A DNA stretch of 64,000 nucleotides from Yuukianura sp. NJ FZ-2021 (GCA_046563655.1 CM102285.1:62001-126000), one strand, 5' to 3'; shown: positions 549 to 40,345, numbered from the stretch's first letter. Notes: generated from the letters alone by a model not told the origin. Numbers and translations: made by a program.

Positions 549-2031
549 TTAATCGTTAACAATAAGTTTTGGTTGCAAATATTCAAATTCTGGCGAGTGA
601 ACAAGCATCATAAGCTGGGCATCAAAAACGTCTTGAACAATTTCCAAATATCCAGCCAAATTCTTGTCCAGCGGATAACATTTTTCCAGTTTTCGAATCA
701 TGACCTGGAGATCATTGAGTTGATCTTTGAGGTCATTGACCCTGGATTCCATGGCAGCTTCCAGAATTGACCTAGAGGTCATTGACCCAGAGGTCATTGA
801 CCCAGAGGTCATTGACCCAGAGGTCAACTCCAGTTGAGCTGCTCTTCTAAGAATTGTGTTGAATTTGTCTCGTTCACAATCCGTGTCATCTTGGAGAGTC
901 ATGATGTTCATTACACCGCGGACTGCTAAAGTAACTCTGTTCAAAACTCGTTGAAACAAAAAGGATTTCCGAATTTTGTCATCGATTTTGAAATTTCGAA
1001 GTCCCGCTAAAATTTCAATCATCAAAGTAGGTGTGGTGGACATGCTTTGAATTTCTTCTAAAGTACTTTCGGAGTAGTCGTCTGAGTCCAAACTCATAAA
1101 AATTGCAGCAGCTCCAACCATCCCAGCACTATGACATTCGTCCAGCATCCCCTTTAAGCTTGGATTTGAATCCTGAAAATCCAACAAAAATTTAAACACT
1201 TTATTCAAATTCCCGCCAGTTGAAAAATTTACTTTTCCCGCCAGAATTCAAACTTTAGTTTAAGGTTTCCCAAAAAATTCAAAAATTTTGCTCAACTTTT
1301 CCCCCCATAGTTCAAAAAGTAAGTTTTCCCGCCGGAATTTCACCGTTATCTCCAGTTTTTCCCCAAAATTTAAGCGCTAGTTTAAGTTTTCCCACCAAAA
1401 TAGAAAACTTTTGCTCAATTTTTCCCCCCATAGTTCAAAAAGTAAGTTTTCCCGCCAAAATTGAAACTTTTAAGTTTTGACACGAAGTTACCTCTAGTCG
1501 TTGCCGTGCCTCTTTGCCCATAGTGTAATGACCTAATGCTTCCGGAAAGAAGTCTTGCACATGCTGAGCATCCGAACTTTTCATGGCCGTTTGAATTTCA
1601 GTTTCAGTGACGCGGTTTTCCATGTACTTTTCAATCTGTGGAAATCTTTGGACAAATTGTTCATAGCCAACTTCGACTCCAACGTGCTCCTTGATGTCAC
1701 TCACTTCATCTGTGTAGTTGCCCAGAATGTGACTGCAGTTCACTTGAAACACAAAGTCCAGTTCGGCACTCCCCGGAATCAGCGATCGGTCGACAAACGC
1801 TGTTTGGACAAAGCGCGAGTACATTTTGCACAACAGAGTTTCGTCATCTTGATCTTCCGACATTTTCCGCATGTCGCTCAACTTGGAATTTAAAAAAGAA
1901 TCGACGAATGATTTGTCACGTAGAATCGGCGGGAACTTTAAATTTTCTGAACGAAGCACCGGAATTTGAATTTTCAAATTTCGAATTGAGCCGTACTCGT
2001 CGTGGTGAATTCCTTCCAGTGTAAGTTCCAT
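549..2031 (-). CDS. Terpene-synthase-fold protein A, catalytic motifs lost (exons 2031-1492, 1172-549)
   Basis: IPVLRSENLKFPP aligns by eye with IPMLLPPGAYKFPD. MIEILAGL..IRKSFLFQRVL aligns with LIELALL..MRRSLIFQRIL, and YLEIVQDVFDA with VLDVLEQMVDG, in the neighbouring TPS genes. Phase-0 GT-AG intron at 1491-1173. Confidence 0.7.
765..826 (-). repeat. In-frame 15-bp tandem repeat (TSGSM, about 3-4 copies) within gene A
   Basis: gaggtcattgaccca repeated; absent from paralog B. Confidence 0.85.
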
Positions 2032-2594
2032 TTTCAAAATTTAAAAAAAAAACAACACAAAAATGATATAAGGAATGATACTCTTTTTTTTAGAAAAGTT
2101 CAGATTTGAAGAAATTTTTATACTTCCACTCTCTTCCAAATTGCAATCAAAACTACTTCAATTTCACAATGTCTTTCTGTGTACCGGTTTTTTTTTGTGC
2201 CAAAAAATTTCCAAAAATGAATGACGCACGCATAAACTTCCGCGTAAAAACTTTTGCCAATTTGCAACACTTTTGTAATAAATTAAATTGTAAAACAAAA
2301 ACTGGTTTACCTTCAAAAAACAAATAAAATTTCCAAAAGAAGGACAGCCGTTTAATGACAAAAACAAAAATTATGAGTTTTATTTTTTATTTTTGATCAT
2401 TCTGCAATTATTTGTGGCTTTTTATCAAAAATGATAAATTTTTAAATAGTTTTGAGTTTTGCTTGCAAATATCAGAAAATTGAAATTTTGGAAGAATTTC
2501 TCGCTTTTTAATGACAAAATTAAAATCTAGTTTACAATTTCTACAAAGTTTTTGACCATTTTCACAATTTTTTGTAACTTTTTCATAAAAAATG

Positions 2595-3964
2595 TTAATT
2601 TTTAAGTTTTGGTTGTAAATATTCATACTCAGGAGAATGCAAAATCATCATGAGCTCCGCATCCCAAACGTCTTGCAAAATTTCCAAATACTCCGACAAG
2701 TTTTCATCCAATGGATAAGTTTTCTCCAGTTTTCTGATGATGACTTGAATGTCATTCAGTTGACCTCTGAGGTCATTCACTCTGGATTCAACTGCTGTCT
2801 GGAGACTTAACTTTTTAGCCCTTTTTATAATTGTGTTGAACTTTTGTTTGTTGCCTTCTTCCAGATCGGCCTGGAGCGTCACTAAATTGTCCAGTCCGGT
2901 CAAGGCAAAACAAAACCGATTGTGGACTCGCTGGAACAAATAAGTCTCCCGGATTTTGGAATCTACTTTCAAATCACGAAGTCCCGCCAAAAGTTCGACT
3001 GAATTGAGACCATTTGAGGTCAAGCTCAGAATCTCCTCTGTCGTCTCCTCCGAGTACACGTCTGGGTCAAGGTTCAACACATAAGCAACTCCAGTCCGAA
3101 TGCCCTGACTACGAAACTCCTTCAGACGCTCTTCAATGTCAGGAATCGTTTTCTACAACAGTAAAAAAATTGCAGCTTGATTAACAACGAATGACAATGC
3201 AAAAAAAAAAAATTAAGAACCGAGTGGGATTCGAACCCCGCGTTTCTCTTATCCCGGAAGCACACTCACCATTGAGCCACCAGTCCCCATTCTACAAACT
3301 TCTGCCGTGGGGGTAGCCCTCGGCCAGTTTCAACCTGGGGGGGGGGTGTTCATCTATGCCACCCCCACAAGGTGACCTTGCCCCCCCGCAGGTGACCTTG
3401 ACCTTGAACCCAACTTACATGTAGTTCCTTTGCAACTTCTCTCAACAATAAGTATCTTCCCATGGCTCCCGGCAGAATGTGTGAGAGTTGGTCCATTTCA
3501 GCGAGCCCCATGCCCTTGAGCGCTTCGATCTCCTCGTCACTGCCGCGGTTGTGCATGAATCGCTTGAGGAGCGGCAGTCTCTGCACAAACTGCTTGTAGC
3601 CCACTTCCAGCCCCACTTCCTCCACTAATTCATTCACGTCGTCAGGGGAACCGCCAGCGAAGTTGCCACAGTCCGCTTGGAACACAAAGTCATGGACGGG
3701 GGTACTTGGCTCAAGGGTCCTGTCCAGGAAACTCACGTGGACCAAGCGAGAGTGCATCTTCACCAGCAAAGAGTCGTCGTCCAGCTCCTCCGCCAAAGTC
3801 CGCATGCGCTTCAGATTTCCATTCAAAAAGGCATCAACTGCTCCCTTGTCCGTTAAAATCGGAGGCACTTTTAAATTTTCGGGACGAAAAACGGGAAGGT
3901 CAATGACCAAACTGTCGATACTTCCAAATTCGGCGTCATGCAAATTTTTCAGAGTGATTTCCAT
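2595..3964 (-). CDS. Terpene-synthase-fold protein B, catalytic motifs lost; close paralog of A (exons 3964-3419, 3152-2595)
   Basis: Colinear with gene A (ESRVNDL..QLND.QV.IRKLEK.YPLD.NL..YLEI.QDV.DA.LMM..HSPE.EYLQPKL); same intron position. Confidence 0.7.
3216..3290 (-). repeat. tRNA-derived SINE-like or tRNA pseudogene fragment in the intron of gene B
   Basis: Minus strand has A box TGGCTCAATGG and B box GGTTCGAATCCC; cloverleaf not intact. Confidence 0.55.
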
Positions 3965-5237
3965 TTCAAAAAACACAGAAAAACTGAAAAATTAAAACTT
4001 TTTTGAACCTTCGAAAATGTTGTCTTTTGTGCTAAATTGTTGATTTGATGCTTTCAAAATGTTGCCTGCGAAGTAGAGTTGAAAATTTCGTCTAAAGGGT
4101 TAAGGATAAACTTGATTAAAACTTGAAAATTTTGAGTTAGGTTTTGAATTTGAGTGTGTGAAATCTGAGTCACTTTTTGGCTAAACTGGAAATTCGCAAC
4201 GTTTTTCTTTAGCACTTTTTGCAATTTGCAAAAATCTCAAGACTTTTTTGCACATTGGAAACTCCCAGCCTTGCAAAGTTTCTTTGGAGAGAAGTGGGAA
4301 ACCCACATTCACATCCTTATGGAATAACATTATAAAAGTTTGAATTTCCCACTCTCAGTTTCCTTGTTGTTCATGATCAGTCTACAAGATTTAAAAAAAA
4401 AATTATCTGAATGTTGAATTGAACCCACTGCTCACGAAGAATCAAGATGCCAAATTTCCAATACTAAATTTTTTTTTGTTATAAGACGGCCTTTATTACT
4501 CTCTGGGTTTTCCATGATATCAACAAAAAAATTTGGAAAACCAGTTTATTTTCTGGGGTTTTCAATGACGTTTTTATGAAAACTTTGTTTTTTCAAATAC
4601 TTGAATCCATTATTCTCAAGGCAAACTTTTAACTACCGGCACTGTTTAAATTCCCAACATTTTTGAAATAAGCGCCAAAAAAAATTTACACTTTATAAAA
4701 AAATACTTGTTTTTGGTGCCTAAAGTCAGTTGCGCTTGATCTGAATCGAATCATAGTCATTTTAACTCCTCTTCCTCCAGCACTTAACATCTTCAGGTAA
4801 AATTTTAACAGTTTTAATCAAATATTATAATACATAATATAACAAAATGTATTTATATAAATAATAACATAAATAAATTAATTACAACTAAAACTAGCAT
4901 TGTTAACTCAAGAATTCCCAAAATATTTAAGTTTACACAATATTTTTAATTTTCCAGTTTTCTGCATTTCCAGTTGTTTTCTGCATTTTCCGAAAGTTCT
5001 CGGCATTTTCCGGCTGTTTTTGATATTTTCCGGCAGTATTCGGCAGTTTCCGTTACATTTCAGGAGTTGTCTTCCACTTCATTCCACTATTTTGTTAAAA
5101 AATGGTATTTTTTACTACTTTATTTGGTATACTGTATTTTGGTATTTAATTATATACATCTCATTTCATTCAAAATTAATAGATTAATTATTATATAAAT
5201 TATTTTAATTAATTGAATTACTTTTCATCAATTGTAG

Positions 5238-6851
5238 AGTAAAACTGGTCCTCCCGTCCTGCCTCCCGGCAAAACCCACACGGTTCAAGTTCAATATGTC
5301 AATGACAACGGTGTCACCGTGACCTTGGACGCCGCCCTGCCGCTCGTCATGACCGTCGGAGACTTCAAACCGCCCGTCATCGACACTTCGACCGAACTCG
5401 ACACGCAGTGGATCTCCGACTGGCTCACCGAAACCGGACTTCTGGCGGCTACCGGAGCCGATCCGGCCGAACTGCTCGAACGGTGCAAAACCGTGTGGAC
5501 TTCGACCCACTTCCTCTGCCCACGGCTCTCCATCACTGATCCACGGTTCAAGGCGTTCTGTCTCTACCTCATGTTTGTCGCCGTGGCAACCAAACTGCCG
5601 GAAGTGGACAAGATGAAGGGCCGCGGCGGTGGGGCGAGTCAGAAGATGATCGGCATTCTGGGCAAGGTCGTTGGAGATCTCCTCTCAAACAAGTATGAAA
5701 AACTGGAAGATCTTCCAGAACTTCCAGAAAAGGCGGCGCCGTTGGTCAAGGCCCTCCATGTCATCAGCGTCATTTCGAAGCGTGACATTCCATGCTGGAC
5801 AGACGAGGTCAAATGGCTAGTAGATAGCATGAGCAAGGCACTTGGAGCAGCACCGCTACTGGAAAACGACTTTCTGGACCAATCACCGGAGACTTTTAAG
5901 TATTTGAAGCGGTACGCCGGCGCAGAACCGATGATTGAACTTTCAGCAATGGCCAACACTGTTACACTGCCTGAGAGCATGCGCAGTTCACTCTTGGTGC
6001 AACAGATCATGAACAAGGTAAAAGAAAAGATTTTTTGATCTATTCATTTCAACTGACTTAACTTACATAAGCATGCATGTCAAAAATATTCAGTCTCCAT
6101 GCCTGTAATGTTAATTATTATTTAGTAAGTAGTAACAGAAAACCCGAAAATATTTTTTATATTAGAGGGGTTTTCTGTTACTAAATACTTATTTATTTAG
6201 TCATGCCATTAATGCTAAATAAGTAAATATTTAAGCGAGTTTTTAAAAAATATTTTTTTTGTGGTTTTTAGCACATAGGCTTTTTAACCCTATGTATTAA
6301 GTTTCAATTGCTTAAAACTAAGTTTTCCTAATGCTAACAACACCCAAAATATTCACAAAAAATATTTTCTTAAAAAATCGCCAGAATAAGTATTTGTTAA
6401 ATAACATTAAAGACATAAAGACTAAATATTTTTGACATCTCTGCTAATGAATGATTTCTGATTGAATGCAATTATAATTTTAAAATATTTTGAATGCCAG
6501 GCCTGTTCAATGGCAGCGACCACTTTGGACATCAAGATGATGAAAATCAGTTTAGAGTTGGGCAACCGAATCAGCGTTCTGACGCTGTGGAAGCGCAAGG
6601 GCTGTAGTGTGGAAGAGGCGTTTAAAAAAGCAGTGGCGGATTTAGAACAAGATGCCTTTGAATTCCGCTTGCTCTGTTTGAACATTCGCGCCATGAACAA
6701 GAAGAATTCAAGGTTGGACAGATTTTTAAAACATGTTGAGGAGTTCCTGGATGGAAACACGATGCGACCGATGGACAAGGAGTTAGAGCAGTACGAAAAA
6801 AATAAGGAACTCGTCAAGGAAAAAGTGGCAGAGGTCAACGCAGAACCATAA
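5238..6851 (+). CDS. Terpene-synthase-fold protein C, catalytic motifs lost (exons 5238-6017, 6501-6851; start exon not located)
   Basis: LPLVMTVGDFKPP, WISDWLTETGL, DPRFKAF, PETFKYLKRYAGA.PMIEL, MRSSLLVQQI and VEEFLDG align with genes E/D/G; canonical splice sites in frame. Confidence 0.7.
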
Positions 6852-9024
6852 AACAACTGTTTTCACAAAAATTCAAAATTTTTGGAGTTACAACATTTTC
6901 AAATTCAAAATTTTAACAATTTTAGTAATATTTTTAAACCCCAAAAGTATGAAATTGTGAATAGAATAAATTGAGCAGTCCAGGCTTGTTTTTTCGATTA
7001 AAAAAAATCCTCTTTTTTTTTTTGAAAATTTTGATTTTTTTTTTATTATGACGTCATTGTATATTCAGAAAAGAGGTTAGGGTTTGCAAACAATTGTTCG
7101 TGACGTTTATTCGATTTAAAGATTTCCAGTTTTCCATTAATTTTTTTTGCATCTAGCCAGTATTCTATGTGAAAAGTTTTTTTTACATGCAAACTTTGCT
7201 GATGTGATAGTAGTTGTACGTAATCGGTTTATGCAAAAAAAATTGTATGTAATCCCTGCAATGCATCAAACTTTTAATTGGATTTTAAGTAAAACCAGAA
7301 TGCTTTCTCACTCTTGCTGGGACGTCGCCCCATGTTGAACAACAGAAGGGGTCTCCCCAAATACTGTGTATTGTGCATGAGGAAAAGGAGAAAAAATCTA
7401 TGTATACTAATGAGAAGGTGTAAGTGTGGGACAGCATACCATTCGTTTGTTCATCATTTCATTTTATTCTTAAAGTTTCCTGTCATCACAAATTTGAAAA
7501 AATCAACAAACTAAAAAATTTTTACGCGCAGTTTACGAGTAAGAGTTTAAGGTAATAGTTACGAGTACGAGTCGGACGATTAAACGGGTCTGTGGCGAAG
7601 CCCCAGCAAGCATTCCCAGCATGCTTGCTGGTTTTAAAAAATGTTGAGAATAAACAAACCAATCAGCAACCATGCAGAGACGGACTTACATTTTCGCATT
7701 AGTATTACAATAAAAGTCTCAACTTGGGTTTTCCCTAACTCATGTGAATTTTTACTCAACAAATATTTTGAACTTAACCACTGCCTATGTAAAAATTTAA
7801 TTTTAGGTATGAATGTATCCAAATATCAATTACGAGTGAAACTTATTTTGGTTCATTCCTTTTTATCAATTGTGAACCTGAATTTTCCTCAACTCGTGAG
7901 ACTCTAATGAAAAAAATAATTATTGAGAGGAGCCGGAAATATAAATTTCTGCAATTTGGAAATGCAAAAAAAATTTTTAAAAAAATGACTGATGAGCTGA
8001 AACAGAATAGCATTTATATACTGGAAATGGGTAGTCACTTAATTAAAACATTCCGAAACACTTCCCTAACTTGTGTAAAAGAATTTTTTTTAGTAAATTT
8101 GAAATTTGAAAAAGTTTCTCATGTATATTCATAAGTGAGCTCATGCTTTTGACGAAATTTGATTACGCCATTTTCTTGGAGTAGTTGATTTTTTTAAATG
8201 CTGCAGACGTAATACGTTATACATTGAGCATTGACGAAGGTAGACACTAAAAAACTCGTTCTGTGTGAAAAGTAGATGCGAGATAACTGGTTGTTAAAAT
8301 ATTAAAAACCAAAAAGCGCACCTAACCGCCGTTTCTTTTATTTTATTTCTCTCATTTATTAAGTTTAATTGGGTTAAGCTGTGAGTTGAGTCATTTGTCT
8401 GCGCATGTCGTGTCAAGGTCAACATTGAGGAAAATATTAATTAAACTAAGAACTATACAACAGTTTCTGTCTCAGCAAAACGTTAGTTGTTCAACAAAAC
8501 TTCTGCAGTACGGTCAAGGTGAGACAATCATAAACTTAACAACATTCAATTAAACTCCAATCACAACACAAGTAGAACAAACTATATTTTAGATTCAAAA
8601 ATGATAAAACACTTTACAAGTTAGAAATAAAAACAGCATTTTTACTAAAAAGTGATGAAATCAAAGCCATTTGGACAGAAAATGAAAATTTCTATTTTTT
8701 TTTAAACGCATGACCATTACTTTAGTAAATTGACTTCATCCGTTCAAAATTGAGTGCTCAACTAAAGATTTCGACAAAAATTTAGTTCAACTCAGAACGG
8801 CCGTTGCTCTTTACAAAAATCTTTACGAATTTACGCCTTTACGTTTTATGTTTTAAATTTACATTTACGTTTGCATTCACATTTAAACTGGGTGTGGACA
8901 TTTTTATTTAAAATTTATTATAACTTTTGAAGGAATTAGAACTTTCCATTTTTTTACTTCAAATTTGTGTACTTCTTGTTAAAGTTTCTTTCTGATTTTT
9001 TTCTTTCTAACAGACACGTATACA

Positions 9025-10268
9025 ATGGGCAGCATTTCAACTTTTGCAGAATGTGAGGATCGAACTTTCGGCAAAAGTGACGATGGAAATTTCGACAAAA
9101 TTGACTATGGAAGTTTCGACAAGACTGGCCATCTTTGGTGCCACTTTACATTAGACAATGTCGAAGGTCAAACTTTAGACGGTTTCCTTCCTCTGCTCCT
9201 CCCTCCCGGAAAATACAAGTTTCCAGATGTGCAGAAAGTAGAAGCACAAGACGGGAGTTGGATCCAGGAGTGGATTGAGGAGGCGGGGCTTCCGTCAGAG
9301 GACCAATCAGAGGAGGAGCATGCGCAGTTCGCCCGTGACATGGCCACTATGTGCGCATACTTCCTCCCCGGCCTTGACCCTGGCACTGACCCCATGAAAA
9401 TTTACATGTGGATCATGACCTTGTCGTTTCTAGGCGACGACGTGCTGGAGGGGCGGGACTTGCTTGGGCGGGACAAAGTGGCTGGCCAGGAAATGGTCGT
9501 CGTTGTGGCCGACATTTTTCGCGGGAAATATTCAAAGTTTGAAGATATTCCTATAAGTGAAGACGCTTTTGGGCTAAAGTCAATGATCAAGGCTGGATTT
9601 CTGGCTGCGCAGAAGGCTAATGCCCTTTTGCCAAACTTTTTTGAAACTTCTGCGCACCTTGCTGATGCCATTAGTGCAGCCTACAGTGGAATGCTGGCAA
9701 TGGAGCTAGAGGATCACTATGACGACGACATGGGCGATCTCCCAGTAGATTCTTACCAGTTTTTTAGAAAGTACGAAGGTGGATTTGAAGGTTTGTTTTT
9801 TAAATTTTTTTAAATTTAGAAATTTAAATTTTTTTTTAATTGTAAATTTTGAAAATTGCAGGTCTGATTGAGTTGGCGTTACTGTGCAAAGGGGCTGTTC
9901 CCACTCCGGACATGCGCAGAAGTCTCATTTTCCAGCGCATTCTTGACCTTGCGTGGTCCATCAACGTTAATATCAACGATCTTTTTAGTATTCGGAAGGA
10001 GTTGAACAATGGCGTTGGCTACAACGTTGTTGCTTACAAAAGTAAATTTGTTGAGCTGCCCAAGGCTTTTGCACAAGTCGTTGCGCATGTGCAGGAGCAG
10101 ATTTTGAATTTCTCTGCGCTGACTAAACGCTACCGAGAGCTTGGTGAAGGAAATGAAACGATAAACGGAGTTTTAGACGTGTTAGAACAAATGGTGGATG
10201 GACATATCTACTGGTACGCAGTCAGCAAGAGATACGGAGACATCAAACTACAAATTGTCCAACGCTAA
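9025..10268 (+). CDS. Microbial-type class I terpene synthase D (exons 9025-9790, 9862-10268; 390 aa)
   Basis: DDVLE (DDxxD/E) at 9436, YQFFRKYEGG (pyrophosphate-sensor Arg region), NDLFSIRKE (NSE/DTE) at 9975, WYAVSKRY (WxxxxxRY) near the C-terminus. Confidence 0.85.
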
Positions 10269-11012
10269 TTACATTTAAAATTTTTAGTTTACTTAGAAAA
10301 TTTTGAAATTTTGAAATTTTCAACAAATTGTGATTTCATTGGTTTGACTCGCATAGTTAAAATAAGAGGCTTTAGAAGAACGTTAATAAAATTAACCTTT
10401 AAAAAGTTCAAAGTCTCAAAAGTTCAGAGCTCAGATATTATTAATATTGTGAGATTTTTTTTCAAAAGTGTAACTTTGATAACTTTATTTTGTGGTAGCT
10501 AAAATTTCAAACTTTGAAGTTTTTGTGTTTTTGTCGTAACTCTCTGAGTTAAAAGAGTCATTTATAATTTGAGAATTATAAAAACAGTTTATTTGAGTTT
10601 GGAATTTCCAAGTTCACACAGAATCGGCAGAAAATGATGAGAAAAGAGGGAGGAACGTAAATGTTTTGTGCATGCGCAGACTCATTTTCTTTTAATTAAT
10701 AAAAAAAGTGGTCGCTTTTCGCACTTGCGCAGATTCATTTCCTTTTAGCATCAGAAGATTCTGTTTTTTGTGCACTTGTAAACTTGACGTCAAGGAAAAC
10801 AGTAAAGAAGTCTTTAGTGTTGAAGGAAAGCAACAAGGAAATTTTTGTGTTCAAGGAAAACCGGAAAAACTACGACAAAAAACAGCGGTAACTTTGAATT
10901 TAAAAACTTTAGAATTTACATTTAGTTTTATAAGAAAATTAACAAATAACAATTAGTTTTATGTTTATAATCTTTTAGAAGTTTAATTTTGGAGTATTTG
11001 AATCTTTGAAAA

Positions 11013-12095
11013 ATGGCTCCAAATTTTCAACCAATCAGAATCGAGCTGGAAGAAAACGGAGTCCAAATTGTGCTGGAGGGTTCGCTTCCGTTAATATTGG
11101 AACCCGGAATTTTCAAAAATCCATTTCAAAAAACCGAAAATGAAAATTCAAATTTGGAGCCTGTTCCGACCTGGCTTCGTGATTGGCTGAATTCGACTGG
11201 ATTGGTAGAATTTTGCGGAAATCTTGAATCGAGCGGGAGTTTTTCAAAAATCAAGTCTTGGTACGAATTGGCACAGTTCGGCCTTCCAGATATGAATCCA
11301 ACGGAACCGAGATTTCAACTTTTCGCGCGTTTTTTAATATTTTTGACTATTTCTGCCCAGCATGAAGAAATGTTAAAGATGAGAAGCGGGAATTCTAAAG
11401 CAAACGAACTCATGGCCGACCTGGTAGCAAATGTTATGCGTTCGAAGTATCAAAAAATTGAAGAGTTGCCAGAAGTACCGAAAAGTACAATTCCACTTTT
11501 TCGCGCCCTTTTTTCCCTCCGCGAGGATTCGAACTCGCGGATTCCAGATTTTGCCGAAATTGCGCCTCCTCTGATCGATGCAATGCGAGAATCCATTTTG
11601 GCCAATTCGAGACTTGGACTTCCAGCGATGCTCGAAGCCCCGGAAACTTTTAACTTTTTTAAACTTCGCGCAGGCGCTCAAGTGCTGGTTGAACTTGCAA
11701 CGATTTGTCGTGGTTTGTACTTGCCAGCTAACCTACGTCTTGACCTAATGTGTCAAAGGTTTCAAGATTTGACATCATCCATAGTCTATAAGGTCATGGA
11801 CATGAGAGAAATGGGGCAAAGTGAGTCAGATAACACTAATGTCCTAAGATTTCTTAGGACAATAAGGAAAGTGGAGCTTCCGGAGGCCTTTGCATTGGTT
11901 TTGAATCAACTGGAGGCGGATGTTGAAGAATTCAAAATCGTGGCGCGCTGTCTGCGCGGACTTTACAAGAAAAATCTCAGATTGCCCAAGTACATTCGTG
12001 CAGTGGAATTCTTTGTTGATGGATGCATGATCTACGATTTTCAAAAAATGTGGGAAAATTTCAACATTGAAGAATTCAAAAACCTAAAAATTTGA
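11013..12095 (+). CDS. Terpene-synthase-fold protein E, intronless, catalytic motifs lost (360 aa)
   Basis: Colinear with D/G (LPLILEPGIFKNP, LVELATICRG, ELPEAF, VEFFVDG). DDxxE is replaced by AQHEE, NSE by MDMREMGQS, and there is no RY. Confidence 0.75.
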   Translation: MAPNFQPIRIELEENGVQIVLEGSLPLILEPGIFKNPFQKTENENSNLEPVPTWLRDWLNSTGLVEFCGNLESSGSFSKIKSWYELAQFGLPDMNPTEPRFQLFARFLIFLTISAQHEEMLKMRSGNSKANELMADLVANVMRSKYQKIEELPEVPKSTIPLFRALFSLREDSNSRIPDFAEIAPPLIDAMRESILANSRLGLPAMLEAPETFNFFKLRAGAQVLVELATICRGLYLPANLRLDLMCQRFQDLTSSIVYKVMDMREMGQSESDNTNVLRFLRTIRKVELPEAFALVLNQLEADVEEFKIVARCLRGLYKKNLRLPKYIRAVEFFVDGCMIYDFQKMWENFNIEEFKNLKI

Positions 12096-12195
12096 AAATT
12101 AAAATATGTTTCTACTTTATTTTATGCGTCTTGCTACATAATATGTAATGTGAATATTATATTATATAATACGTATATCATATTATGTGATATTT

Positions 12196-12260
12196 ATTAT
12201 CGCCAACTCTTGATGTGCTGTACGACTGAAATAATTTCCATCAGAGCTTTGGTGTTGGAG
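12196..12260 (-). pseudogene. Remnant of the CRAL-TRIO gene 3' end
   Basis: Translates KALMEII vs KALLEII in the intact gene; adjacent AT-rich flank at 12150-12210 resembles 15340-15400. Confidence 0.5.
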
Positions 12261-13069
12261 TTTGCTATGGTGGAAAAACCTGTTTTGCGATTTTCATTAT
12301 TCACTTGGGAAAAGCTGATTCTTTGAAAGTCAAAACGTTTTGATCTATTTCACAACAAAAAAGGTTTTTCTTGCGGTCATCTTTTTCTATGGAGTGGCAT
12401 TTATGACTCCAAATACAATTTACGAGTTTAAAATTAACCTAAAACCGAATTCTAACTTATTTACTTCTAAATTACTATCTTCTAATTTTAGAATTTGAGT
12501 TAGACAGGTTAAAGGCTAACTATCGTTCAATTTCGCACATGTTGATAAAGCTTAATTAAAAAATTTAAGTTAAGTTCATTTTGAGGTTTCCGTGCTCATT
12601 AACATTCGGCTTATTTACATTCGCGGGAACTGCATTCGCGCCTTTGGTTTTCGCGACAATGACTTAATAATAAGTACAATTAAAATGATAGCATCAAACA
12701 AGGAAGCAAACTATATGGAAGTGTTTAGATTGTGTGATCCTGATCACAAAAAGCGAACGTCTTGTTTACGTCTTATTTAGGAATTTTTTGTTAATTAATT
12801 AAAAATAATTATATTTGGAGGCATCAATGCCCCTCCATATTTTTCAAAATTTTCTTTCAAATGAAAATATGGTTTCAGTATCTTGAAGTTTCGCACCAAA
12901 ACGAGTTCCTTCATCACATACAAGAATTACATTGAATAATATTGTTATTTTGTGGCACGACTTAAGCATAACAATCAACAAGAGAAGAGGATAAAACGAA
13001 GCTGAAACGGCAAAACGTTAGTCACTCGAAATTCTTTGCACGTGATGAAGAATAGGTGAAAAAAAGTCA

Positions 13070-13377
13070 GTTGTGGAGCAGGTCAAGTGGTTAACGAGGG
13101 AGTCAACCTTTTAGATCAGTAATTCTGTTCGAATCCCGCCTCTTTTATTGAATTATTTTATATTTATACTTTTTTTTTAAAGTTTAAACACAAACACACA
13201 GTTCCAGTGGAGTGAGGTTAAATTCAGGACTGGCGTTCGACTCCTATCCGGATCATTTTCTTTTTCAAACGTTAAATTCTTAAGACACAAGTGAAATTAT
13301 TGCAAGTGAGCTCCAGGTAGTTGGTTAACCTCCGAATGAGTTTTTCCTGGAGTCTGGGTTCGAATCCTGCCAGCGGT
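13070..13377 (+). repeat. Three degenerate tRNA-like (B-box) modules upstream of gene F
   Basis: GTTCGAATCCC near 13127, GTTCGACTCC near 13235 and GGTTCGAATCC near 13357, each followed by T-rich runs. Confidence 0.45.
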
Positions 13378-13457
13378 TATTTTTTTTCAGTAATTTCACT
13401 TTTTTTTTTCTCTGAAGATGCATTTTTGTTGTTTTCATAGTTTTACTGAGAGTGAAA

Positions 13458-14910
13458 ATGAATTCTACGGCAACAAACAAGAGGACTTGGTGTGAGATAG
13501 TTATGGAGGAGGTGGAAGGTCACACCCTCCGGGGATTAATTCCGATGCTCCTCCCCCCGGGGGCATACAAATTCCCCGACGTGGCCAGAGTAGAATCACA
13601 AGATGGGAGTTGGATTGAAGAGTGGATTCGAGAAGCGGGGTTGGAACCCCAGGGAGAAACCCCGGAAGAAAGAGCTCAGTTCGCCCGTGACATGGCCACT
13701 ATGTGCGCATACTTCCTCCCCGGCCTTGACCCAGGCACTGACCCCATGAAAATATACATGTGGATCATGACACTGTCGTTTCTAGGCAAGCTTGTTTAAC
13801 TCCAAATTTTGTTTATTTTTTCTTAACAGGTTATACCATAACTCCTTTTTCAAATTTTCAAACTTTTTGAACATCACATCTGATATATGGCTCCGTTGTG
13901 TTTGCAATTCGAATTCAAAACTATGACTCAGCAACGTGAAAATTAAAAAATTTCAAAAGAGTATTGTGAAAATCAACAAAATTGGTACAAAAGTTGTTTT
14001 TTTCGTGTTTAAAAAAATCGGAGTTATGACATAACCTCTTAGAGCATTTGTGCAAATGGTCGCTATAGCAACCTTGTTTCTAGGCGACGACGTGCTGGAG
14101 GGACGGGACTTGTTTGGACGAAACAGAGTGGTCGGCCAAGAAATGGCCGTGGTGGTCGCCGACATTTTTCGTGGGAAATATTCAAATTTTGAGGACATTC
14201 CGATCAGCGAAGACGCGTTTCGGCTAAAGTCAATGATCAAGGCTGGATTTCTGGCTGCGCAGAAGGCTAATGCCCATTTGCCAAACTTTTTTTCAACTTC
14301 TGAGCACCTTGCTGATGCCATTAGTGCAGCCTACAGTGGAATGCTGGCAATGGAGCTAGAGGATCACTATGACGACGACATGGGCGATCTTCCAGTAGAT
14401 TCTTACCAGTTTTTTAGAAAGTACGAAGGTGGATTTGAAGGTTTGATTTTTAAATTTAGAAATCTAATTTTTTTTTCAAAATTGTAAATTTTGAAAATTG
14501 CAGGTCTGATTGAGTTGGCGCTACTGTGCAAAGGGGCTGTACCCACTCCGGACATGCGCAGAAGTCTAATTTTCCAGCGTATCCTTGACCTTGCATGGTC
14601 CATCAATGTTAATATCAACGATCTTTTTAGTATCCGGAAGGAGTTGAACAATGGCGTGGGCTACAACGTTGTTGCTTATAAAAGTAAATTTGTTGAGCTG
14701 CCCACGGCGTTTGCGCAGGTCGTTGCGCATGTGCAAGAGCAGATTTTGGAATTAGCTGCGCTGACTAAACGCTACCGAGACTTTGGTCAGGGAAACAAGA
14801 CGATAAACGGAGTTTTAGACGTGCTAGAACAAATGGTGGATGGACATGTGTACTGGTACGCAGTCAGCAAAAGATACGGAGACATCAAACTACAAATTGT
14901 CCAACGATAA
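13458..14910 (+). CDS. Microbial-type class I terpene synthase F, G/D chimera (exons 13458-13785, 14084-14440, 14504-14910; 363 aa)
   Basis: DDVLE, NDLFSIRKE and WYAVSKRY intact; the frame is restored by a GC-AG intron at 13786-14083 and a GT-AG intron at 14441-14503. Confidence 0.8.
13787..14076. mobile_element. 290-bp non-autonomous hAT-like element (MITE) forming intron 1 of gene F
   Basis: 8-bp TSD TTTCTAGG at 13779-13786 and 14077-14084; imperfect TIR CAAGCTTG...CAACCTTG; paralog D shows the empty site. Confidence 0.75.
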
Positions 14911-15391
14911 CTTCATTTAAAAATTTTAGTTTACTACAATTTTGAAATTTTCAACAAATTGTGATTTCATTAGTTTAACGTGTACAGTTAAAAATAAGGT
15001 GCTTTAGAAGAATTTGTTAATAAAAATAATCTTGAAAAGTTCAACGTCTGAAAAGCTAAAAGTTCGGATTGTTTGTGAAATTTTTTCGAAAAGTGATTTT
15101 GATAAATTTTTTCTTCTGATACTTAGAATTTCAAAATTTGAAGTTTTTGTGTATTTGTCGTAGTTCTCTGTGTTATTGCGAATTGACAAGCAGTTTAATT
15201 TGACTTTGGAATTTCCAAGTTCACACAGAATCGGTAGGAAATACAACGCCGTAAACACTGTACTTAAGTAGCGAAAGGAAACTAGATTGTACAACACGGA
15301 AGTCGTGCAATCTTTCGTTACATAATATCTAATATTTCTGTAATATTTATGTTATATTATGTAATATTATATTATATAATATTTATTATCG

Positions 15392-16923
15392 TCAACTTTT
15401 GGTTCCTCCGAGGTCACGGCTGAGGTCACCGGCAGGAATAATTTCCAAAAGAGCTTTGGACCACTTTTCTTTTTTTCTGCCAAAAATGTGCAATCTATCT
15501 TTTTGTGTTCCGCTCATCGTAGTCGACACGAGTCCCAGCACAACTCGAAGTATTCTCTTTTGGCCTGCAAGTTTTTAAAAATTTATAATTTTTTTCAAAA
15601 AAACAAAAATTCAAATTTTTCCCTAAAATTTTTTTCTTACCATTGATTACATAAACACTGTGGACTAAACGAGGATAATGTTCTTCAGCGATCTCTTTAA
15701 ATTGAGACAGCAGCGGTAGGACTAAAATATAAACAAAATTAGAGTTGTGCACCGAATCACTAAAAATTGTGGTTTCAAAGTTGTGCGCCAAAATTTTGTG
15801 CTTATCTTACGCTTCTTGGCAAATTTTAAATTTTTGGTGACCTCAATCTCGTGACCTTTGCCATCAAAAATCACTACAGAGTTGCCGAATGGATTCGGAG
15901 AGTTTCGGACGATCGTTTCTAGCATCTCGGCGTGAAACATTGCAAAGCGTTCTAACCGAATTCTGTCGCTTTTCAGCTTCTCCTTGACCATTTTCCGCAG
16001 TTCTTTATCCTCGTAATTGAACAGTTCATCTGTAGGTTCCACAAGGATCACTGCAAAACCAAGGTCAAAGGTCAATTTTCCAAAATCAAAGCTCAATTTC
16101 CAAAGGTCAAAGGTCATTGACCTGTGAATCTCCAAGGCTAACCTGGGCGTCCTTGGAAATCATGGGCAATGACACGGTAAGTAACGGGACAAAAAACGTC
16201 ACTGAAATCTTCTTCTAAAATTCCGTCAATCCTATTTTCCGTTCTCCATTTCAAATTCTACAAAAAAAAAATTGTAAATTTTAAAATTTACCAAAATTAT
16301 AAATGCACAGCAACTTTGGACTTAAAATTTACCTTGGCTATGGCCCGGGCGGCATGTCTCATATTGTACTTCATTGCTACAAAATTAAGAAAAGACGTGA
16401 GTTAGTTTTTAGAAATTTAGAATTTAAAATTCTGACTTTTGTAGAAAATTTCCGAAAATTTTGTATTATTTAAAGCTTCTAAAATGGGATTTTTCTTAGT
16501 CATGAAATTTCCTCAGAAACTTTTCAAAATTCTTTGCTTTTCCAAATACTCACGCCTTCCAACTTTCTATAGCGTATTAACTGCTTCTTTTTGTAAAAAA
16601 AGTGTTTGGGCGAAGCCTCAATACGCATTTCCAGCATAGCTTAATTTTACGCATAATTTTTTTTTGGAATTTCAAAAACTTCAAAGCTTTACCGCGAATC
16701 CATCTTTTCAAAAAGTTGTCCGTTAGGTGTGGTTTTGACGATTCGTCGCCCAATGTTTGTTGAAGTGTTCTACGCAGCTGTTTCAAAATTTTGAAAACAA
16801 AATTTTAGAAATCGATTTCTTTTAAATAAGTTTTTAAAACCAATTTAAAATGTTATTTTTTCTCACCTCAGCTACAAGCGAACCAATGTTGGCTTCTGCT
16901 TCGGCTTTTTTTGCTTGACCCAT
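15392..16923 (-). CDS. CRAL-TRIO / SEC14-like lipid-binding protein (multi-exon)
   Basis: DNFLKRWIRAMKYN, LKWRTENRIDGIL, DFQGRPVILV, VVIFDGKG, EEHYPRLVHSVYVING and KWSKALLEIIPAGDLSRDLGG follow the SEC14 pattern. Confidence 0.85.
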
Positions 16924-18529
16924 TAAGGCAAAGGTCAACTTTTCTTTGTTATAAAAATTGAAAAATAATTTGTGTCAGTTTTAAATTTTGTAATGTTTTG
17001 AATTACAACTTTTAAATTTGGCGCGTTCGTAGATCCAGAGATACTGGAAGTATTTTACCAACTCCAGCAAAACCTGTTTGTAACTTGAAATAAAAATTTT
17101 GGCACCAGGTTCTCCACTGGTTCAAAAATTTCCGTAGATTTGACCTCGAAAAGTCCACGCAGACGCCAACTTGTGAAATTCCAACAAAAAAAATGCTCAA
17201 TTCCAAGTGGAAAAACCTGTAAACTTGTTCTTAAATTTTTGTTGTTCACTTGGGAAATCCTAACTCCTTGAAAAATCTAAAATTATTTCACTTTACAAAA
17301 AAAATGTTATTTTGGCGGCCTGTTTCGCTAAATTTTCCTTAAAATGAAAATAAAAATTGTGAAGAGTTAATCTTTTTTAACAATGAAGTAAACATGCGAA
17401 GAGGTCAATACATTTCAGTTCTCATGAAAAATGGAATTTCCCACATTAATCTTCTTGTGAAATTTTTTACTTCAGTTCACAACTAATGATCCTGTCGTGC
17501 ATCGCAATAAGTTTAATTACAAGTTTTTTTTAGTCTAACAAACAAGGAAAACTGCATCTTCTTTGAATTTTTTCAAATTCCAAATTATTTTTGTCTCATC
17601 AGTTTCAAAAATTTATGAAACGACAAAAAGGAGTCGCGCCAAACAAGGAAAAATTACTCGGGTTTTGCAATTTTTTTTTTGTAAAATTTATTTCAATGTT
17701 GCAAATTATAGACTTTTAGTTAAAGATTTGATGAAAAAGGTGCAAAATTGCTAATAAGTGATGCAGTTGAGAAATTCAAAGAATTTTTTTAAATAATCTA
17801 TTCAACTTTTTTTTTCAACTCGCCGGAAATTTTTTTAAACGCTGAAATTGGACCGAACAATTTCCGATTTTCAAACCGTTTTTGTCAAGGATTTTTTTTC
17901 TGGTTAATAATTTTATGGTTACTGATTTTTGTTAAAGAAGAAATTAGATTTTAGTGTGTCGTTTAATTAGAACTTGCATGTACAGAACGACAAAAATGTT
18001 TTTGAAAAAAATTGTGTTATAAGTTTCCACAAATTGACTTTTCCCACCAAAAACGAGTTTCTTAATCAGATACAAACATTTTATGGGATAAAATTACTCT
18101 TTTGTGGCATGCTGTCCTTTGTTTTAACTTTCAACCAAAAAAAATTGGAAAAACAACACCTTTTTTTGATTGTTCTTGAAAGCGATCAGGTAAAACTGGA
18201 AGTTGTTAAGTGGCGATGAAAATAAAAGGACGGTGGCAGTTGACTTTTGAAATTCCTCCAAATTTAATTAAGTAATTGCACTTAACGATCAAGGGAAGAG
18301 GATAAAACCAAGCGGAAAGAACAAAGATTTAGTCACACGAATTATTCTACAAATATCTCAGCACGTGAAGAACAATAGGTAAAAAAAAATCAGTTGTGTC
18401 ACAGGTCAAGAGGTCAATGACAGAGTCAAATTTTAGTGCAGTCATGTCAGGATCATAATTTTTTTTAATAATTTGACTTTTTTTTTCTAAAAATATAAAT
18501 TTTTGTTTTCATAGTGTTGCAAGGTGAAA

Positions 18530-19621
18530 ATGGGTTCAATGGCTGTAAATAAGAGGACTTGGTGTGAAATAATAGTGGACGGGGTTGAAGGTCACACTCT
18601 CCGGGGATTAATTCCGATGCTCCTCCCCCCGGGGGCATACAAATTCCCTGACGTAGCTAGAGTAGAGTCACATGACGGGAGTTGGATCGAAGAGTGGATT
18701 CGAGAATCGGGGTTGGAACCCCAGGGAGAAACCCCGGAAGAAAGAACTCAGTTTGCCAAGGACATGGCCACGTTCTGTGCCTACTTAATCCCCGGCCTCG
18801 AATGCGGTTCAGACGCCATGAAGTTTTACATGTGGATCATGACCTTGGGGTTTCTGGGGGACGACGTGCTGGAAGGGCGGGACATTTTTGGGCGGGACCG
18901 GGAAGCGGGCGTGAAAATGGCCACTGTTGCTGGAGAACTGTTCACTGGAAAGTACTCTACACTGGACAGCATTCCTTTTGACCAAGAGGCTTTTGGACTC
19001 AAGACGATGATTCGCGCGGGATTCGTGGCCGCACAGAAGGCGCAGGCGCACATTCCGAATTTTTATGAATCAGCGACATATTTTGCCGAAGCAGTGACCC
19101 TGAGCTACTCAGCATCACTTTCTCTTGAACTAGAAGATCACAATGACGATGACCTCGGTGACCTCCCGATCGAAAGTTACGATGACTTTAGATTCTACGA
19201 AGGCGGGTTTCAGGGGTTCATTGAACTTGCTTTTCTTTGCCATGACGCCGTGCCGTCACTGAGCATGCGTCAAAACGTCATTTTCAAAAGACTCCTCGTC
19301 CTGGCATGGCACATTTCCATTTACATCAACGATCTGTTTGGCGTGCGGCGTGAAATTGAGTCAGGGCGTGGTTATAACAGCGTCATCTACAGAACAAGGG
19401 AGATGGAACTGCCCGAGGCGTTTGAGCAAGTTGTGGCAATTGTGAATCGAGATGTTTTGAATTTTGTTGCCTTGGCAACGCGGTACAAAACACACCACCG
19501 AGTGGACAGTCACGAGCAACGCGTGCTCAGAGTGCTCGAGGAATTCGTGGATGGGCACATTTACTCTTTCCAAGCCAATCGCAGATACGGCAACATCAAA
19601 ACACAATTCTTGGAGCGATGA
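18530..19621 (+). CDS. Microbial-type class I terpene synthase G, intronless CDS (363 aa)
   Basis: DDVLE, YDDFRFYEGG, NDLFGVRRE (NSE with Gly), SFQANRRY (RY kept, Trp replaced). Confidence 0.85.
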   Translation: MGSMAVNKRTWCEIIVDGVEGHTLRGLIPMLLPPGAYKFPDVARVESHDGSWIEEWIRESGLEPQGETPEERTQFAKDMATFCAYLIPGLECGSDAMKFYMWIMTLGFLGDDVLEGRDIFGRDREAGVKMATVAGELFTGKYSTLDSIPFDQEAFGLKTMIRAGFVAAQKAQAHIPNFYESATYFAEAVTLSYSASLSLELEDHNDDDLGDLPIESYDDFRFYEGGFQGFIELAFLCHDAVPSLSMRQNVIFKRLLVLAWHISIYINDLFGVRREIESGRGYNSVIYRTREMELPEAFEQVVAIVNRDVLNFVALATRYKTHHRVDSHEQRVLRVLEEFVDGHIYSFQANRRYGNIKTQFLER

Positions 19622-29456: not shown

Positions 29457-30635
29457 CTAAATCCGGAACTTGGAAAGCGAAAATAGAGCTGTCGACAACG
29501 AAACGAACAAAACACAAATTCCAGTCGACATTCGGTCGCTTCCGGATGGCAATTCGCGCGTTGCGCAGTGTATTCCGCCACCACCAGAAATAATTGCGTT
29601 GATCTCCAGGGCCACAATTTTCCGTCCAGGAAACTCCTGTCGCATGATTTTCTGTGCCTCTTCATCAGCCTTATCATCACCAAACTTCGGCATGATCACG
29701 GCTCCATTGACCACATAAAAGTGGAAATAACTGGCCACAAATTTTCCAACAAGCTTCGTTTTGTTGGGATTTGGTTCTAGCAAATCCACAAACTCAAACT
29801 TACCACCATTCTTCGTGTTATTTAGTACTTTAATCGCTTCGTTAACAGCTGTGGACCAATCGCCTTTGGTCTTACAACCTTCACATGGACGTGACACCAT
29901 CACCCGTCCAGGACGGACCAACCGCACAATGGAAGGGACACAGCCATCAGTCATATCATTCCGATGGACACCATTGACCCAGATGACCTTGGTCACCCCC
30001 AGGACCAGTTTCAGCTCAGTTTCTATTTCAGTTGTATCGGAATTGGACGAACTGGTGACCAGCAGCGTTCCAGCCCCGTCGCTCTCCAACGCTCCACGTT
30101 CAACTATTTTGGAAGTTCGACTTCGTCGGATGTTGAGTGTCCAGAATAATCGCTGCGACAGCGCTTCTGCTTTGGCCTGCCTAAAGTCAACTCCAACTGC
30201 GATCGTTTCGGAAACGTTTCGTCCACGTCTGTCAGTGTCGTATGCTGTTTGGGTAGTGAATAGCGGAATGGTATTACGGGCCCAGAGGTCATCAGTCTCC
30301 AGTTTGAGCAGATCAATCTCACTGCTCGTCATTTTGGATACGTTTTTGAAGTCGTTGGGAGATACAATGAGGGTGACTGGCTCGAACTTGACAATCGCTT
30401 CAGCGATGGACACGATTTCACGCTGGACTGATTCCAGAAGGGACGTATTTTGCTTTTTGTTGTCCCAAACTTTTGCATTGGGGAATACCATAAAAGTGCG
30501 TTCATGTCGCTCATGTTCGGCGGGAAACCGAACTTGGTCTCTGCTGTCTTTCAATTCTATGTCCAGACCATTGCACCAAGGGAGGACAAGGAGCATTGTT
30601 GTGAGCAGAAGGATTTCGGTAGTGATTGAAAGCAT
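29457..30635 (-). CDS. Agmatine/peptidylarginine deiminase-family protein 1; signal peptide and hydrophobic C-tail, degenerate active site
   Basis: FPAEHERHERTFM and GGGGIHCAT present, but DDLWARN, ERG and TDGCVP replace DDLWARD, EGG and TDAHVD; tail GICVLFVSLSTALFSL. Confidence 0.85.
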   Translation of the reverse strand: MLSITTEILLLTTMLLVLPWCNGLDIELKDSRDQVRFPAEHERHERTFMVFPNAKVWDNKKQNTSLLESVQREIVSIAEAIVKFEPVTLIVSPNDFKNVSKMTSSEIDLLKLETDDLWARNTIPLFTTQTAYDTDRRGRNVSETIAVGVDFRQAKAEALSQRLFWTLNIRRSRTSKIVERGALESDGAGTLLVTSSSNSDTTEIETELKLVLGVTKVIWVNGVHRNDMTDGCVPSIVRLVRPGRVMVSRPCEGCKTKGDWSTAVNEAIKVLNNTKNGGKFEFVDLLEPNPNKTKLVGKFVASYFHFYVVNGAVIMPKFGDDKADEEAQKIMRQEFPGRKIVALEINAIISGGGGIHCATRELPSGSDRMSTGICVLFVSLSTALFSLSKFRI

Positions 30636-30764
30636 CTTTGGCCGTTTGACTTCTGTTTCAAGTTTATAAAATCTGAAAAAATCCAAAATTTAAAAAGTTA
30701 AGTATGTAGTAATATTAAATACAACAAAATTCCACAGGAATCTTACAGAAAACTGTAGAAGTTC

Positions 30765-39102: not shown

Positions 39103-40345
39103 TTTTGAACATTCGCGGAAACTAGAAAAGAGCGGCAGAAGTGGAGCAAAAAGGTAATAAAAAGATCAATTCAACACTGGAAAGTTGGAGTTCAAATTTG
39201 GAAATGAATTCTGAAATTTTAAAGTGAAATTTTATGCTGAACTTTTTTTTTGTGTGTTTTTATGTCAAAGAGGTTTTTCTGGAACAATGACAAAAAAAAG
39301 ATTGCGGTTGCATGACACGGAATGATGGATATGGTTTGGCAGTGCACTTGAATTCTGGAAATTTAACCATAGGGCAATATTAGAATGCTGGTAATCAATT
39401 TTACATTGTGATTACTTATAAGAATTGAAAAATTAATTGCATGATCTAATTAATTGCCGTTTCTTGACACTTCACGTCAGGAATCTTCGTTTGTTGCATC
39501 AAAGTAACACCACATGAACACCCCATGAACGCCCCAATGAATCCCACCAAAACGTGATCCCACCATTCGTGGCAACGTTTTATTGTAAGCACGATGCGGC
39601 TGAAGCTCTTGGGAAAAAAATTCGCAAGATTGGAATTAAAATGTTAAGCGCGAAGCTCTAATTTAGAATAGCGTTTCGCTACGACTTGCTACTAGGGATG
39701 TCCTTTGGACGTGGTTCATTTGATAAAAATTCAACTCATATATAACTTTTGGACATGGTCGAATTGATAAATATTTTATATAAAGTTTCTAACACAAATA
39801 AATATTGCTAAGAAAATTTCGAAATTTCAAAAATTATGAGAAATGTTTCTAATAAAATTAATTCTTCTTTTTTTGAAATCGAGTCGTGACAAGATTGTTG
39901 GGATTACAGTTCAATCGATGAACCTTTGCGTGACTTTCCTTCTGCTTCTTTTTTCAGACATTATTAGGTAGCGAAAGCCACTTCATGCATCGGCATTGTC
40001 TGGCTGTCTGTCTTTTTTTATCCGACCGGCAGTTAGCGGCAATTAGCTCGGACACGGCTCAGGAGTTCCGGGATCTGTTTGCGCTGGTGGACACTTCGTG
40101 AACCGCTTATGTTCAGTATTGAATATCATCCTGGTGGGTCAATACCTTCCGGGTATAGGGTCAAAGTCAACCATTTAAGTGAAGTCAACTTAACGTATGT
40201 TAACGTTTGTCAAGGTAACGTAAGAAATTACGTGTACAAAAGTTGTTCCTCTTATCGAAACCATCAACTTTTGTGCACATCACTCACAAGTGACCGCCTT
40301 CTGAGTCAAAGTTTTTTTCTTTTTCTCGTTTATAACCATACTGCG

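Follow-up and report, generated by a model that had tools for sequence, protein, structure and literature searches.

Locus and gene models

The first 20 kb of a 64,000-nucleotide stretch of Yuukianura sp. NJ FZ-2021 (GCA_046563655.1, CM102285.1:62001-126000; hereafter the window, with positions counted from its first letter) hold seven co-linear terpene synthase (TPS) genes of the microbial type (class I, alpha-domain), here designated A to G (549-19621), of which four (A, B, C and E) depart from the canonical catalytic signature and form the subject of this study. All seven models have lengths that are multiples of three and zero internal stops, A, B, C and D have GT..AG introns only, and a tblastn search of the 64 kb with the seven proteins recovered exactly these seven loci; the initial annotation, which had described A, B, C and E as co-linear with D/G, open and well spliced, is thereby confirmed.

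Genes A and B are encoded on the minus strand. Gene A (2031..1492 plus 1172..552; 387 aa, intron of 319 nt) consists of a first exon at 1492..2031 (aa 1-180; start ATG at 2031-2029, GT donor at 1491-1490, DEVSD at 1696-1710) and a second one at 549..1172 (aa 181-387; AG acceptor at 1174-1173, MNIMTLQDD at 885-911, an EY dipeptide, and the stop at 551-549), and gene B (3964..3419 plus 3152..2598; 367 aa, intron of 266 nt) of exons at 3419..3964 (aa 1-182; DDVNE at 3629-3643) and 2595..3152 (aa 183-367 and the stop; DNLVTLQAD at 2865-2891, EY in place of RY). The remaining genes are found on the plus strand. Gene C (5238..6017 plus 6501..6848; 376 aa, intron of 483 nt) has a main exon of 260 codons at 5238..6017, which lacks an ATG at its start and encodes TKLPE at 5589-5603, and a last exon of 116 codons plus stop at 6501..6851 (LDIKMMKIS at 6525-6551, no RY), and gene E is a single exon at 11013..12095 including the stop (coding 11013..12092; 360 aa; AQHEE at 11355-11369, MDMREMGQS at 11796-11822, no RY). 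The canonical genes are D (9025..10268, with exons at 9025-9790 and 9862-10265 plus stop; 390 aa; DDVLE, NDLFSIRKE and RY), F (13458..14910, assembled from 13458..13785, 14084..14440 and 14504..14907; 363 aa) and G (18530..19621, a single exon coding at 18530..19618; 363 aa). Reading the open reading frames of A (or of B) as two separate genes was rejected, as P0015 (a relative retrieved by the profile search reported below, in which P-numbers denote matches) spans both halves in one intronless frame.

Several structural peculiarities of individual genes were recorded. The second exon of A contains at 766-826 an in-frame tandem repeat (15 nt x 4.1 copies, 97% matches) that adds about 16 residues (SGSMT repeats) absent in B and P0015, and which by alignment with P0015 maps to residues ~290-294 of the model of that protein, between helices 282-290 and 294-322; the intron of A carries a further repeat at 1274-1471 (59-nt unit x 3.3 copies). 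In gene F, a 298-bp insertion (13786-14083) lies directly 5' of the DDVLE codons, has a perfect 10-nt direct repeat on either side (GTTTCTAGGC, 13778-13787 and 14076-14085) and holds 27-nt inverted repeats (13824-13850 / 14015-14041) that are 81% complementary; on these sequence features it looks like a miniature inverted-repeat transposable element with a target-site duplication, and F is in frame only when the insertion is removed as a GC..AG intron.

Catalytic signatures

In class I TPS, Mg-A and Mg-C are coordinated by the first Asp of the DDxxD motif and Mg-B by the NSE triad, and diphosphate binding falls to the sensor Arg and RY. The canonical proteins D, F and G carry DDVLE, RY and the NSE triad, the last reading NDLFSIRKE in D and F and NDLFGVRRE in G. 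The Asp-rich site, of which both Asp columns reach >=90% conservation in a 77-row alignment (as does just one further column), reads TKLPE in C and AQHEE in E, where only the last acidic residue survives and the DDxx(D/E) pattern is lost; on helix D of B the motif is present (DDVNE), and in A it is present as a variant (DEVSD). At the NSE/DTE site the triad (N/D)Dxx(S/T/G)xxx(E/D) is absent from A (M..T..D), C (L..M..S) and E (M..E..S), and its first position varies within the A/B-type (M in A, D in B, H in P0015). At the position of the pyrophosphate-sensor Arg, which in the family consensus precedes the triad by 46 residues, A has Q, B has L and C/E have K, and the RY position is occupied by EY in A and B and has no counterpart in C and E; in P0001 and P0002, relatives of C and E respectively, the C-terminal lid segment carrying RY is missing altogether.

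These readings agree with the initial annotation in the replacement of DDVLE by AQHEE (E) and TKLPE (C) and in the disappearance of RY from all four proteins. Its NSE replacements stand for C (LDIKMMKIS) and E (MDMREMGQS), whereas those given for A and B were one residue out of register (MNIMTLQDD and DNLVTLQAD are the corrected strings, obtained from alignments including the nearest canonical relatives), and it is the corrected register that lets B fit a loose D/T/D triad. Judged by sequence, C and E deserve the description, given to all four, of lacking the metal-binding motifs; it is half correct for A, which keeps the Asp-rich motif, and doubtful for B, which could still bind metal because both the Asp-rich motif and the loose NSE/DTE triad are kept.

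Family membership and predicted fold

Among the pieces scanned with Pfam, G gave the only TPS match (PF19086, Terpene_syn_C_2; 35.1 bits vs a cut-off of 23.7). By tblastn, C and E match D/F/G at 1e-13 to 1e-26 (E vs G about 1e-18, C vs G about 1e-22), and E matches the main exon of C at 9e-36; searches with G or E gave no detectable similarity to A and B. Profile-profile comparison (hhalign) connects A+B with C+E at P=1.2e-4 and with D+F+G at P=0.011, in both cases co-linearly and over the C-terminal half only. The A/B-type is further anchored by BLASTP matches of B to canonical relatives over ~313-323 aa (P0110 9.7e-19, P0055 7.5e-15, P0051 1.2e-13, P0102 1.2e-12), to which A shows weaker matches; since P0051, P0055 and P0102 exceed the gathering cut-off of PF19086 (and carry DDxxD, NDxxGLxKD and RY), homology is shown transitively. 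We conclude that A, B, C and E are TPS-family paralogues, C being placed by sequence only. The relatives found by sequence and by structure are terpene cyclases and do not point to membership in the isoprenyl diphosphate synthase (IDS) family. A PDB sequence search gave for G weak TPS matches only (best E 0.006) and for E none that were relevant, a word-based protein search returned nothing with E or G and only P0015 itself with P0015, and a protein-atlas look-up placed E nearest to clusters of terpene synthases (score 0.94), which we take as a lead only.

AlphaFold2 models built with the family alignment reached a predicted local distance difference test (pLDDT) score of 91.3 and a predicted template modelling (pTM) score of 0.91 for E, and values of 90.6 and 0.90 for the A/B-type relative P0015. 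Both are helical bundles (E starts with a short beta hairpin, and P0015 has short strands near both ends), whose best PDB matches in Foldseek (identity 10-18%, target-normalised TM 0.53-0.77) are bacterial and fungal class I cyclases, i.e. pentalenene, T-muurolol, 1-epi-cubenol, selinadiene and aristolochene synthases; for E, the top 49 among the PDB matches listed are all TPS-fold proteins. In the model of E, the replaced Asp-rich site (115-119) is found at the end of helix 99-115 and the replaced NSE site (262-270) at the end of helix 245-268, as expected. E and the A/B-type are thus predicted to have the all-alpha class I terpenoid synthase fold, and the structure prediction proposed in the initial annotation came out in favour of that fold for both.

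Selective maintenance

Pairwise Nei-Gojobori estimates gave, for A-B, proportions of synonymous (pS) and non-synonymous (pN) differences of 0.72 and 0.31 (omega, i.e. dN/dS, about 0.17), which resembles the canonical pair D-G (pS 0.71, pN 0.30, omega 0.18); the canonical pair D-F has an omega of 0.26. The corresponding pS and pN values were 0.78 and 0.48 for C-E (omega not computable), 0.74 and 0.31 for C-P0001, and 0.75 and 0.43 for B-P0015 (omega not computable). In every pair compared pN is well under pS, and the omega values are rough because synonymous sites are saturated in every informative pair. A substitution-only neutral simulation on frames of these lengths left 1-2% of them open at 0.1 substitutions per site and 0/500 at 0.2, and A and B, which are 50% identical, both have intact frames. 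The initial suggestion that A and B, diverged yet frame-intact, are under selection is therefore borne out by the pN deficit, the open frames and the simulation, and the omega of A-B, rough as it is at saturated pS, is not near 1.

The degenerate C and E are moreover more similar to their relatives (53% for both E-P0002 and C-P0001) than canonical G is to its own nearest relative P0003 (36%), in a comparison where the organism pairs may differ. At the replaced Asp-rich site E shares HEEM with P0002 and C shares LPE with P0001, each type keeping its own form, and conservation between relatives of the C/E types is lowest in the NSE region (30-35% per 20-aa block). From these sequence comparisons we consider A, B, C and E to be selectively maintained and not decaying.

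Relatives and phylogeny

A profile search of 1.84 billion representative proteins yielded 258 matches at E<=0.001 (61 at <=1e-10 and 12 at <=1e-30), the best 150 of which were retrieved. Among these, the closest relative of C is P0001 (BLASTP identity 52.6% over 348 aa), that of E is P0002 (53.0% over 334 aa), and B matches P0015 at 35.8% over 372 aa (A-P0015 30%). A FastTree phylogeny (LG+gamma, Shimodaira-Hasegawa-like supports) was built from 103 rows, comprising the 7 window proteins and 96 matches; matches ranked past P0130 or with lengths outside 280-450 aa were left out, the partial P0151 was added, and P0007 was swapped for a longer member of its cluster, P0152. Within this tree C groups with P0001 (0.997) and E with P0002 (1.0), the four unite with a support of 0.961, and P0152 joins them at 0.997; all five have lost both motifs, and together with P0009 they are sister to the canonical clade of D, F, G, P0003-P0006 and P0008 (joint support 0.994). 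On this topology, the C/E duplication is older than the split from the organism(s) carrying P0001 and P0002. A and B group together (0.996), then with P0015 (1.0) and with P0151 (0.997), and the A/B group is nested among canonical proteins (P0038, P0090, P0110, P0051, P0055 and others; 0.975). The separate placements of C/E and A/B imply that two degenerate lineages arose independently. More broadly, both motifs (loosely defined) are kept in 82/103 alignment rows, and as the other 21, two of which are truncated, lack one or both, motif loss recurs in the family. Five further relatives (P0011, P0020, P0022, P0087 and P0138) are 720-870 aa long and would represent either two tandem TPS domains or a TPS fused to another domain; the tail of P0020 resembles, by eye, a cis-prenyltransferase.

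A recurrent head-to-head gene pair

The relatives of C and of A/B occur as neighbours on a 4122-bp metagenome contig (L001), where the C-type P0001 (1863..826, minus strand) and the A/B-type P0015 (2704..3804, plus strand), both intronless, lie head-to-head with 840 bp between their starts, and on which no further credible long frame was found. Genes B (minus) and C (plus) of the window show the same arrangement at a distance of 1273 bp, and their intergenic region (3965..5237), which would contain any 5' exon of C, possibly harbours a shared promoter. As P0001 and P0015 are intronless, introns must have been gained or lost between the two lineages; the GC content of the contig is 45.5% vs ~39% in the window. 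The retention of the A/B-type and C-type pairing elsewhere suggests joint regulation or joint function, i.e. that the two types may be co-regulated or act together, as far as one contig can indicate. A complex prediction for P0015 with P0001, in which alignments were unused and controls not run, scored 0.00 vs a mark of 0.34 and is no evidence either way.

Genomic surroundings

The rest of the window is eukaryotic in character: it encodes a C2H2 zinc-finger protein, a Sina RING protein and a protein kinase, along with split fatty-acid desaturase exons, a methylpurine glycosylase exon and four PAD_porph genes. Prokaryotic contamination was rejected as a source of the TPS genes, since they carry introns and sit among eukaryotic genes. 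The four PAD_porph genes, which each consist of a single exon and lie on the minus strand (29457-30689, 37963-39165, 45602-46849 and 47703-48818), are paralogues of the Porphyromonas-type peptidyl-arginine / agmatine deiminase; the two that were scanned both match PF04371 (E about 1e-100), at least three of the four have signal-peptide-like N-termini, and they constitute a second expanded, bacterial-looking gene family within the window. Many intergenic spacers are occupied by AT-rich low-complexity repeats of the 'aaattttgaaaatt' type. A tRNA-like stretch suspected by eye in the intron of B is unsupported, the tRNA and Rfam scans of window positions 1-22000 having produced no matches.

Interpretation

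Taken together, these observations lead us to propose (with a probability of about 0.6) that A, B, C and E represent two independently derived, old and maintained TPS lineages with a degenerate catalytic signature. The C/E-type has lost the two leading Asp of DDxxE, the three NSE ligands and RY, and its sensor Arg has become Lys; without the canonical ligands, the trinuclear Mg2+ cluster needed for prenyl diphosphate ionisation cannot assemble, and it is very unlikely, to judge from these residues, that C and E act as canonical ionisation-initiated cyclases. Since C and E are conserved all the same, the replaced site included, we read them as re-purposed TPS-fold proteins, which would keep the helical barrel and use it for binding or modulating something, most likely within the terpene pathway run by the adjacent catalytic D, F and G. 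Of the roles considered for C and E, that of a non-catalytic binder or regulator ranks first, at odds that seem to us about even, and non-canonical catalysis, which appears doubtful, comes second. For the A/B-type, either metal-dependent catalysis of a weak or unusual kind or a second lineage of pseudoenzymes comes into question: non-canonical catalysis is for these two a proposition that may just as well be true as false, and a non-catalytic binder or regulator is a tentative option that we would not favour. That any of these proteins is functionless we hold to be highly improbable.

Several points weigh against this proposal and were considered in the estimate. With respect to the catalytic state, B satisfies both metal motifs when these are loosely defined, its NSE site (D..T..D) fitting the pattern [ND]xxx[STG]xxx[ED], which A fails, and A/B may simply be active enzymes with odd motifs, given that their sister clade itself uses NDxxGxxxD. 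Concerning membership and fold, the Pfam scan found no TPS family in any piece of A, B, C and E, and P0001, P0015 and P0152 likewise go unrecognised; the N-terminal halves of A/B show no significant hhalign similarity to C-G (P 0.29-0.61); a protein-language-model look-up (a lead only) recognised P0015 poorly and placed it among unnamed helical proteins and not among TPS; the A/B-type fold was modelled through P0015 only, which is 30-36% identical to A/B, and the alignments supplied to AlphaFold2 consist mostly of canonical TPS. As regards maintenance, omega averages long histories and does not measure present-day constraint; a recent silencing of A, B, C and E may have occurred; the relatives are metagenome or unnamed records, whose assignment to another organism is drawn from divergence and intron loss; and the B-C adjacency, seen on one contig only, could be inherited linkage without function. 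Lastly, the frame of C has no ATG, with an in-frame TAG at 5235-5237 and its first Met at residue 38, so that its start needs an upstream exon; the relative P0001 opens with a Met at the place equivalent in C, and the start of C may be supplied by a candidate one-codon exon (ATG|GT, 5102-5104).

The alternative that survives best holds that A and B, and perhaps all four proteins, are still enzymes in which the TPS barrel works with a reduced or different catalytic apparatus, among the possibilities being ionisation with two metals or one, protonation-initiated reactions of the neutral terpenes that D/F/G produce, and prenyl transfer. We consider it possible but doubtful. The retention of the Asp-rich motif in A, B and P0015 speaks for it, as do the D/T/D triad of B and the variant NDxxGxxxD triad already present in the canonical sister clade of A/B; for the C-/E-type relatives, the conservation of the replaced site (LPE, HEEM), including the last acidic residue, is of the same tendency, and the N-prenyltransferase DsKabA (9m1w), ranked 45 among the structural matches of E, indicates that the fold supports other reactions. 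Against it, members of the A/B-type differ at the first NSE ligand (M, D and H), none of the proteins retains the sensor Arg or the Arg of RY, the NSE region of C/E is the block least conserved between relatives (30-35%, as above), and P0001 and P0002 are devoid of the C-terminal lid that bears RY.

A second alternative, formulated by analogy with the small subunit of heteromeric geranyl diphosphate synthase, sees the motif-less proteins as obligate heteromer subunits of D/F/G that would set product outcome or activity. Consistent with such a role are the position of these genes in tandem with catalytic ones (E is placed between D and F) and the long-term retention of inactive-looking paralogues, but the sole conserved neighbour pair found joins the two degenerate types (A/B-type and C-type) and contains no canonical member. 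Many alpha-only class I TPS are monomers and no heteromeric form is known among them, which further argues against this explanation; we regard it as unlikely. As a precedent on its side, retained dead paralogues often regulate their active relatives, according to the portions of the pseudoenzyme reviews that were consulted.

That the four genes are non-functional duplicates (incipient pseudogenes), open by chance, could be upheld by the missing ATG of C, the young 15-nt tandem expansion inside the coding region of A and the lost Pfam recognition, but is very improbable in view of frames that stay open despite saturated synonymous divergence (0/500 simulated neutral frames at 0.2 substitutions per site), intact relatives at 53% (C), 53% (E), 30% (A) and 36% (B), a pN well under pS in every pair and a C/E split older than the split from the carriers of P0001/P0002.

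A more far-reaching version of our proposal, which we put forward as improbable though consequential, is that a eukaryote (whether animals or other) carries two ancient TPS-derived pseudoenzyme lineages, whose paired divergent A/B-type and C-type genes make up a non-catalytic module. Such a module might act as a heteromeric regulator/chaperone of catalytic TPS, or as an intracellular sensor of terpenoids or prenyl diphosphates, and, if true, would constitute the first system of regulatory subunits described for class I terpene synthases. The two motif-degenerate lineages are conserved as well as their catalytic neighbours, or better. Surveys of TPS usually select candidates by Pfam and sometimes by the two metal motifs, a practice by which copies of this kind are dropped or labelled as pseudogenes. 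Should the four proteins be non-catalytic partners or binders, class I TPS would be added to the enzyme families with regulatory dead paralogues, and rebuilding animal terpene pathways might require A/B/C/E-like proteins; if they are enzymes, they would represent TPS-fold chemistry without the canonical Mg cluster.

Comparison with known systems

Microbial-type TPS genes are known from springtails (277 genes in 21/26 genomes, 55% of them with introns; PMC13638087) and also from mites and fungus gnats (PMC11665903, PMC6275457), according to the consulted parts of these reports, to which the following statements on arthropods are likewise limited. Like the window genes, the arthropod TPS belong to a PF19086-type family, are eukaryotic nuclear genes, are multi-copy with tandem copies and have introns in some members only, a description that D, F and G fit. 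In the characterised enzymes, among them the five springtail proteins chosen for study (ScTC1-5), DDxxD, the sensor Arg, the NSE triad and RY are present throughout (PMC13638087), unlike in C and E. For two species without annotated proteomes, an intact gene was taken as one with both motifs present (PMC11665903), and copies such as C and E would therefore have been filtered out there. Within the literature consulted we found no description of conserved motif-less TPS paralogues, some of which may be listed in the supplements of arthropod TPS papers, and titles and abstract openings on 'terpene synthase' together with 'pseudoenzyme' contained none on a TPS pseudoenzyme.

The nearest structural counterparts are bacterial sesquiterpene synthases (pentalenene, 1ps1; T-muurolol, 9hqm; 1-epi-cubenol, 9hqa; selinadiene, 4okm), the best matches of the models (Foldseek E-values 1e-7 to 1e-5, TM 0.54-0.77 over ~300-360 alignment columns), which differ from C and E in possessing the full metal- and diphosphate-binding signature that these two have lost, and share with the modelled proteins an identity of 10-18%. 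DsKabA (9m1w) resembles the situation proposed here in that an alpha-helical TPS fold serves non-cyclisation chemistry (N-prenyl transfer); it is metal dependent, and no specific sequence relationship between it and the window proteins was found. The small subunits (SSU-I/II) of heteromeric geranyl diphosphate (GPP) synthases, whose role as non-catalytic partners is named in the part of 10.1101/2025.03.24.644926 consulted, are likewise maintained by selection, have Asp-rich motifs that no longer work and are paralogous to a catalytic isoprenoid enzyme. Their family is that of the prenyltransferases (IDS) and their heteromer formation is demonstrated, whereas E and P0015 structurally match terpene cyclases, and the likeness is thus one of functional analogy only. 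Of the features of such a subunit, the fold family of the partner combined with a loss of its catalytic motifs is seen in C and E and partly in A/B, in which the Asp-rich motif is kept.

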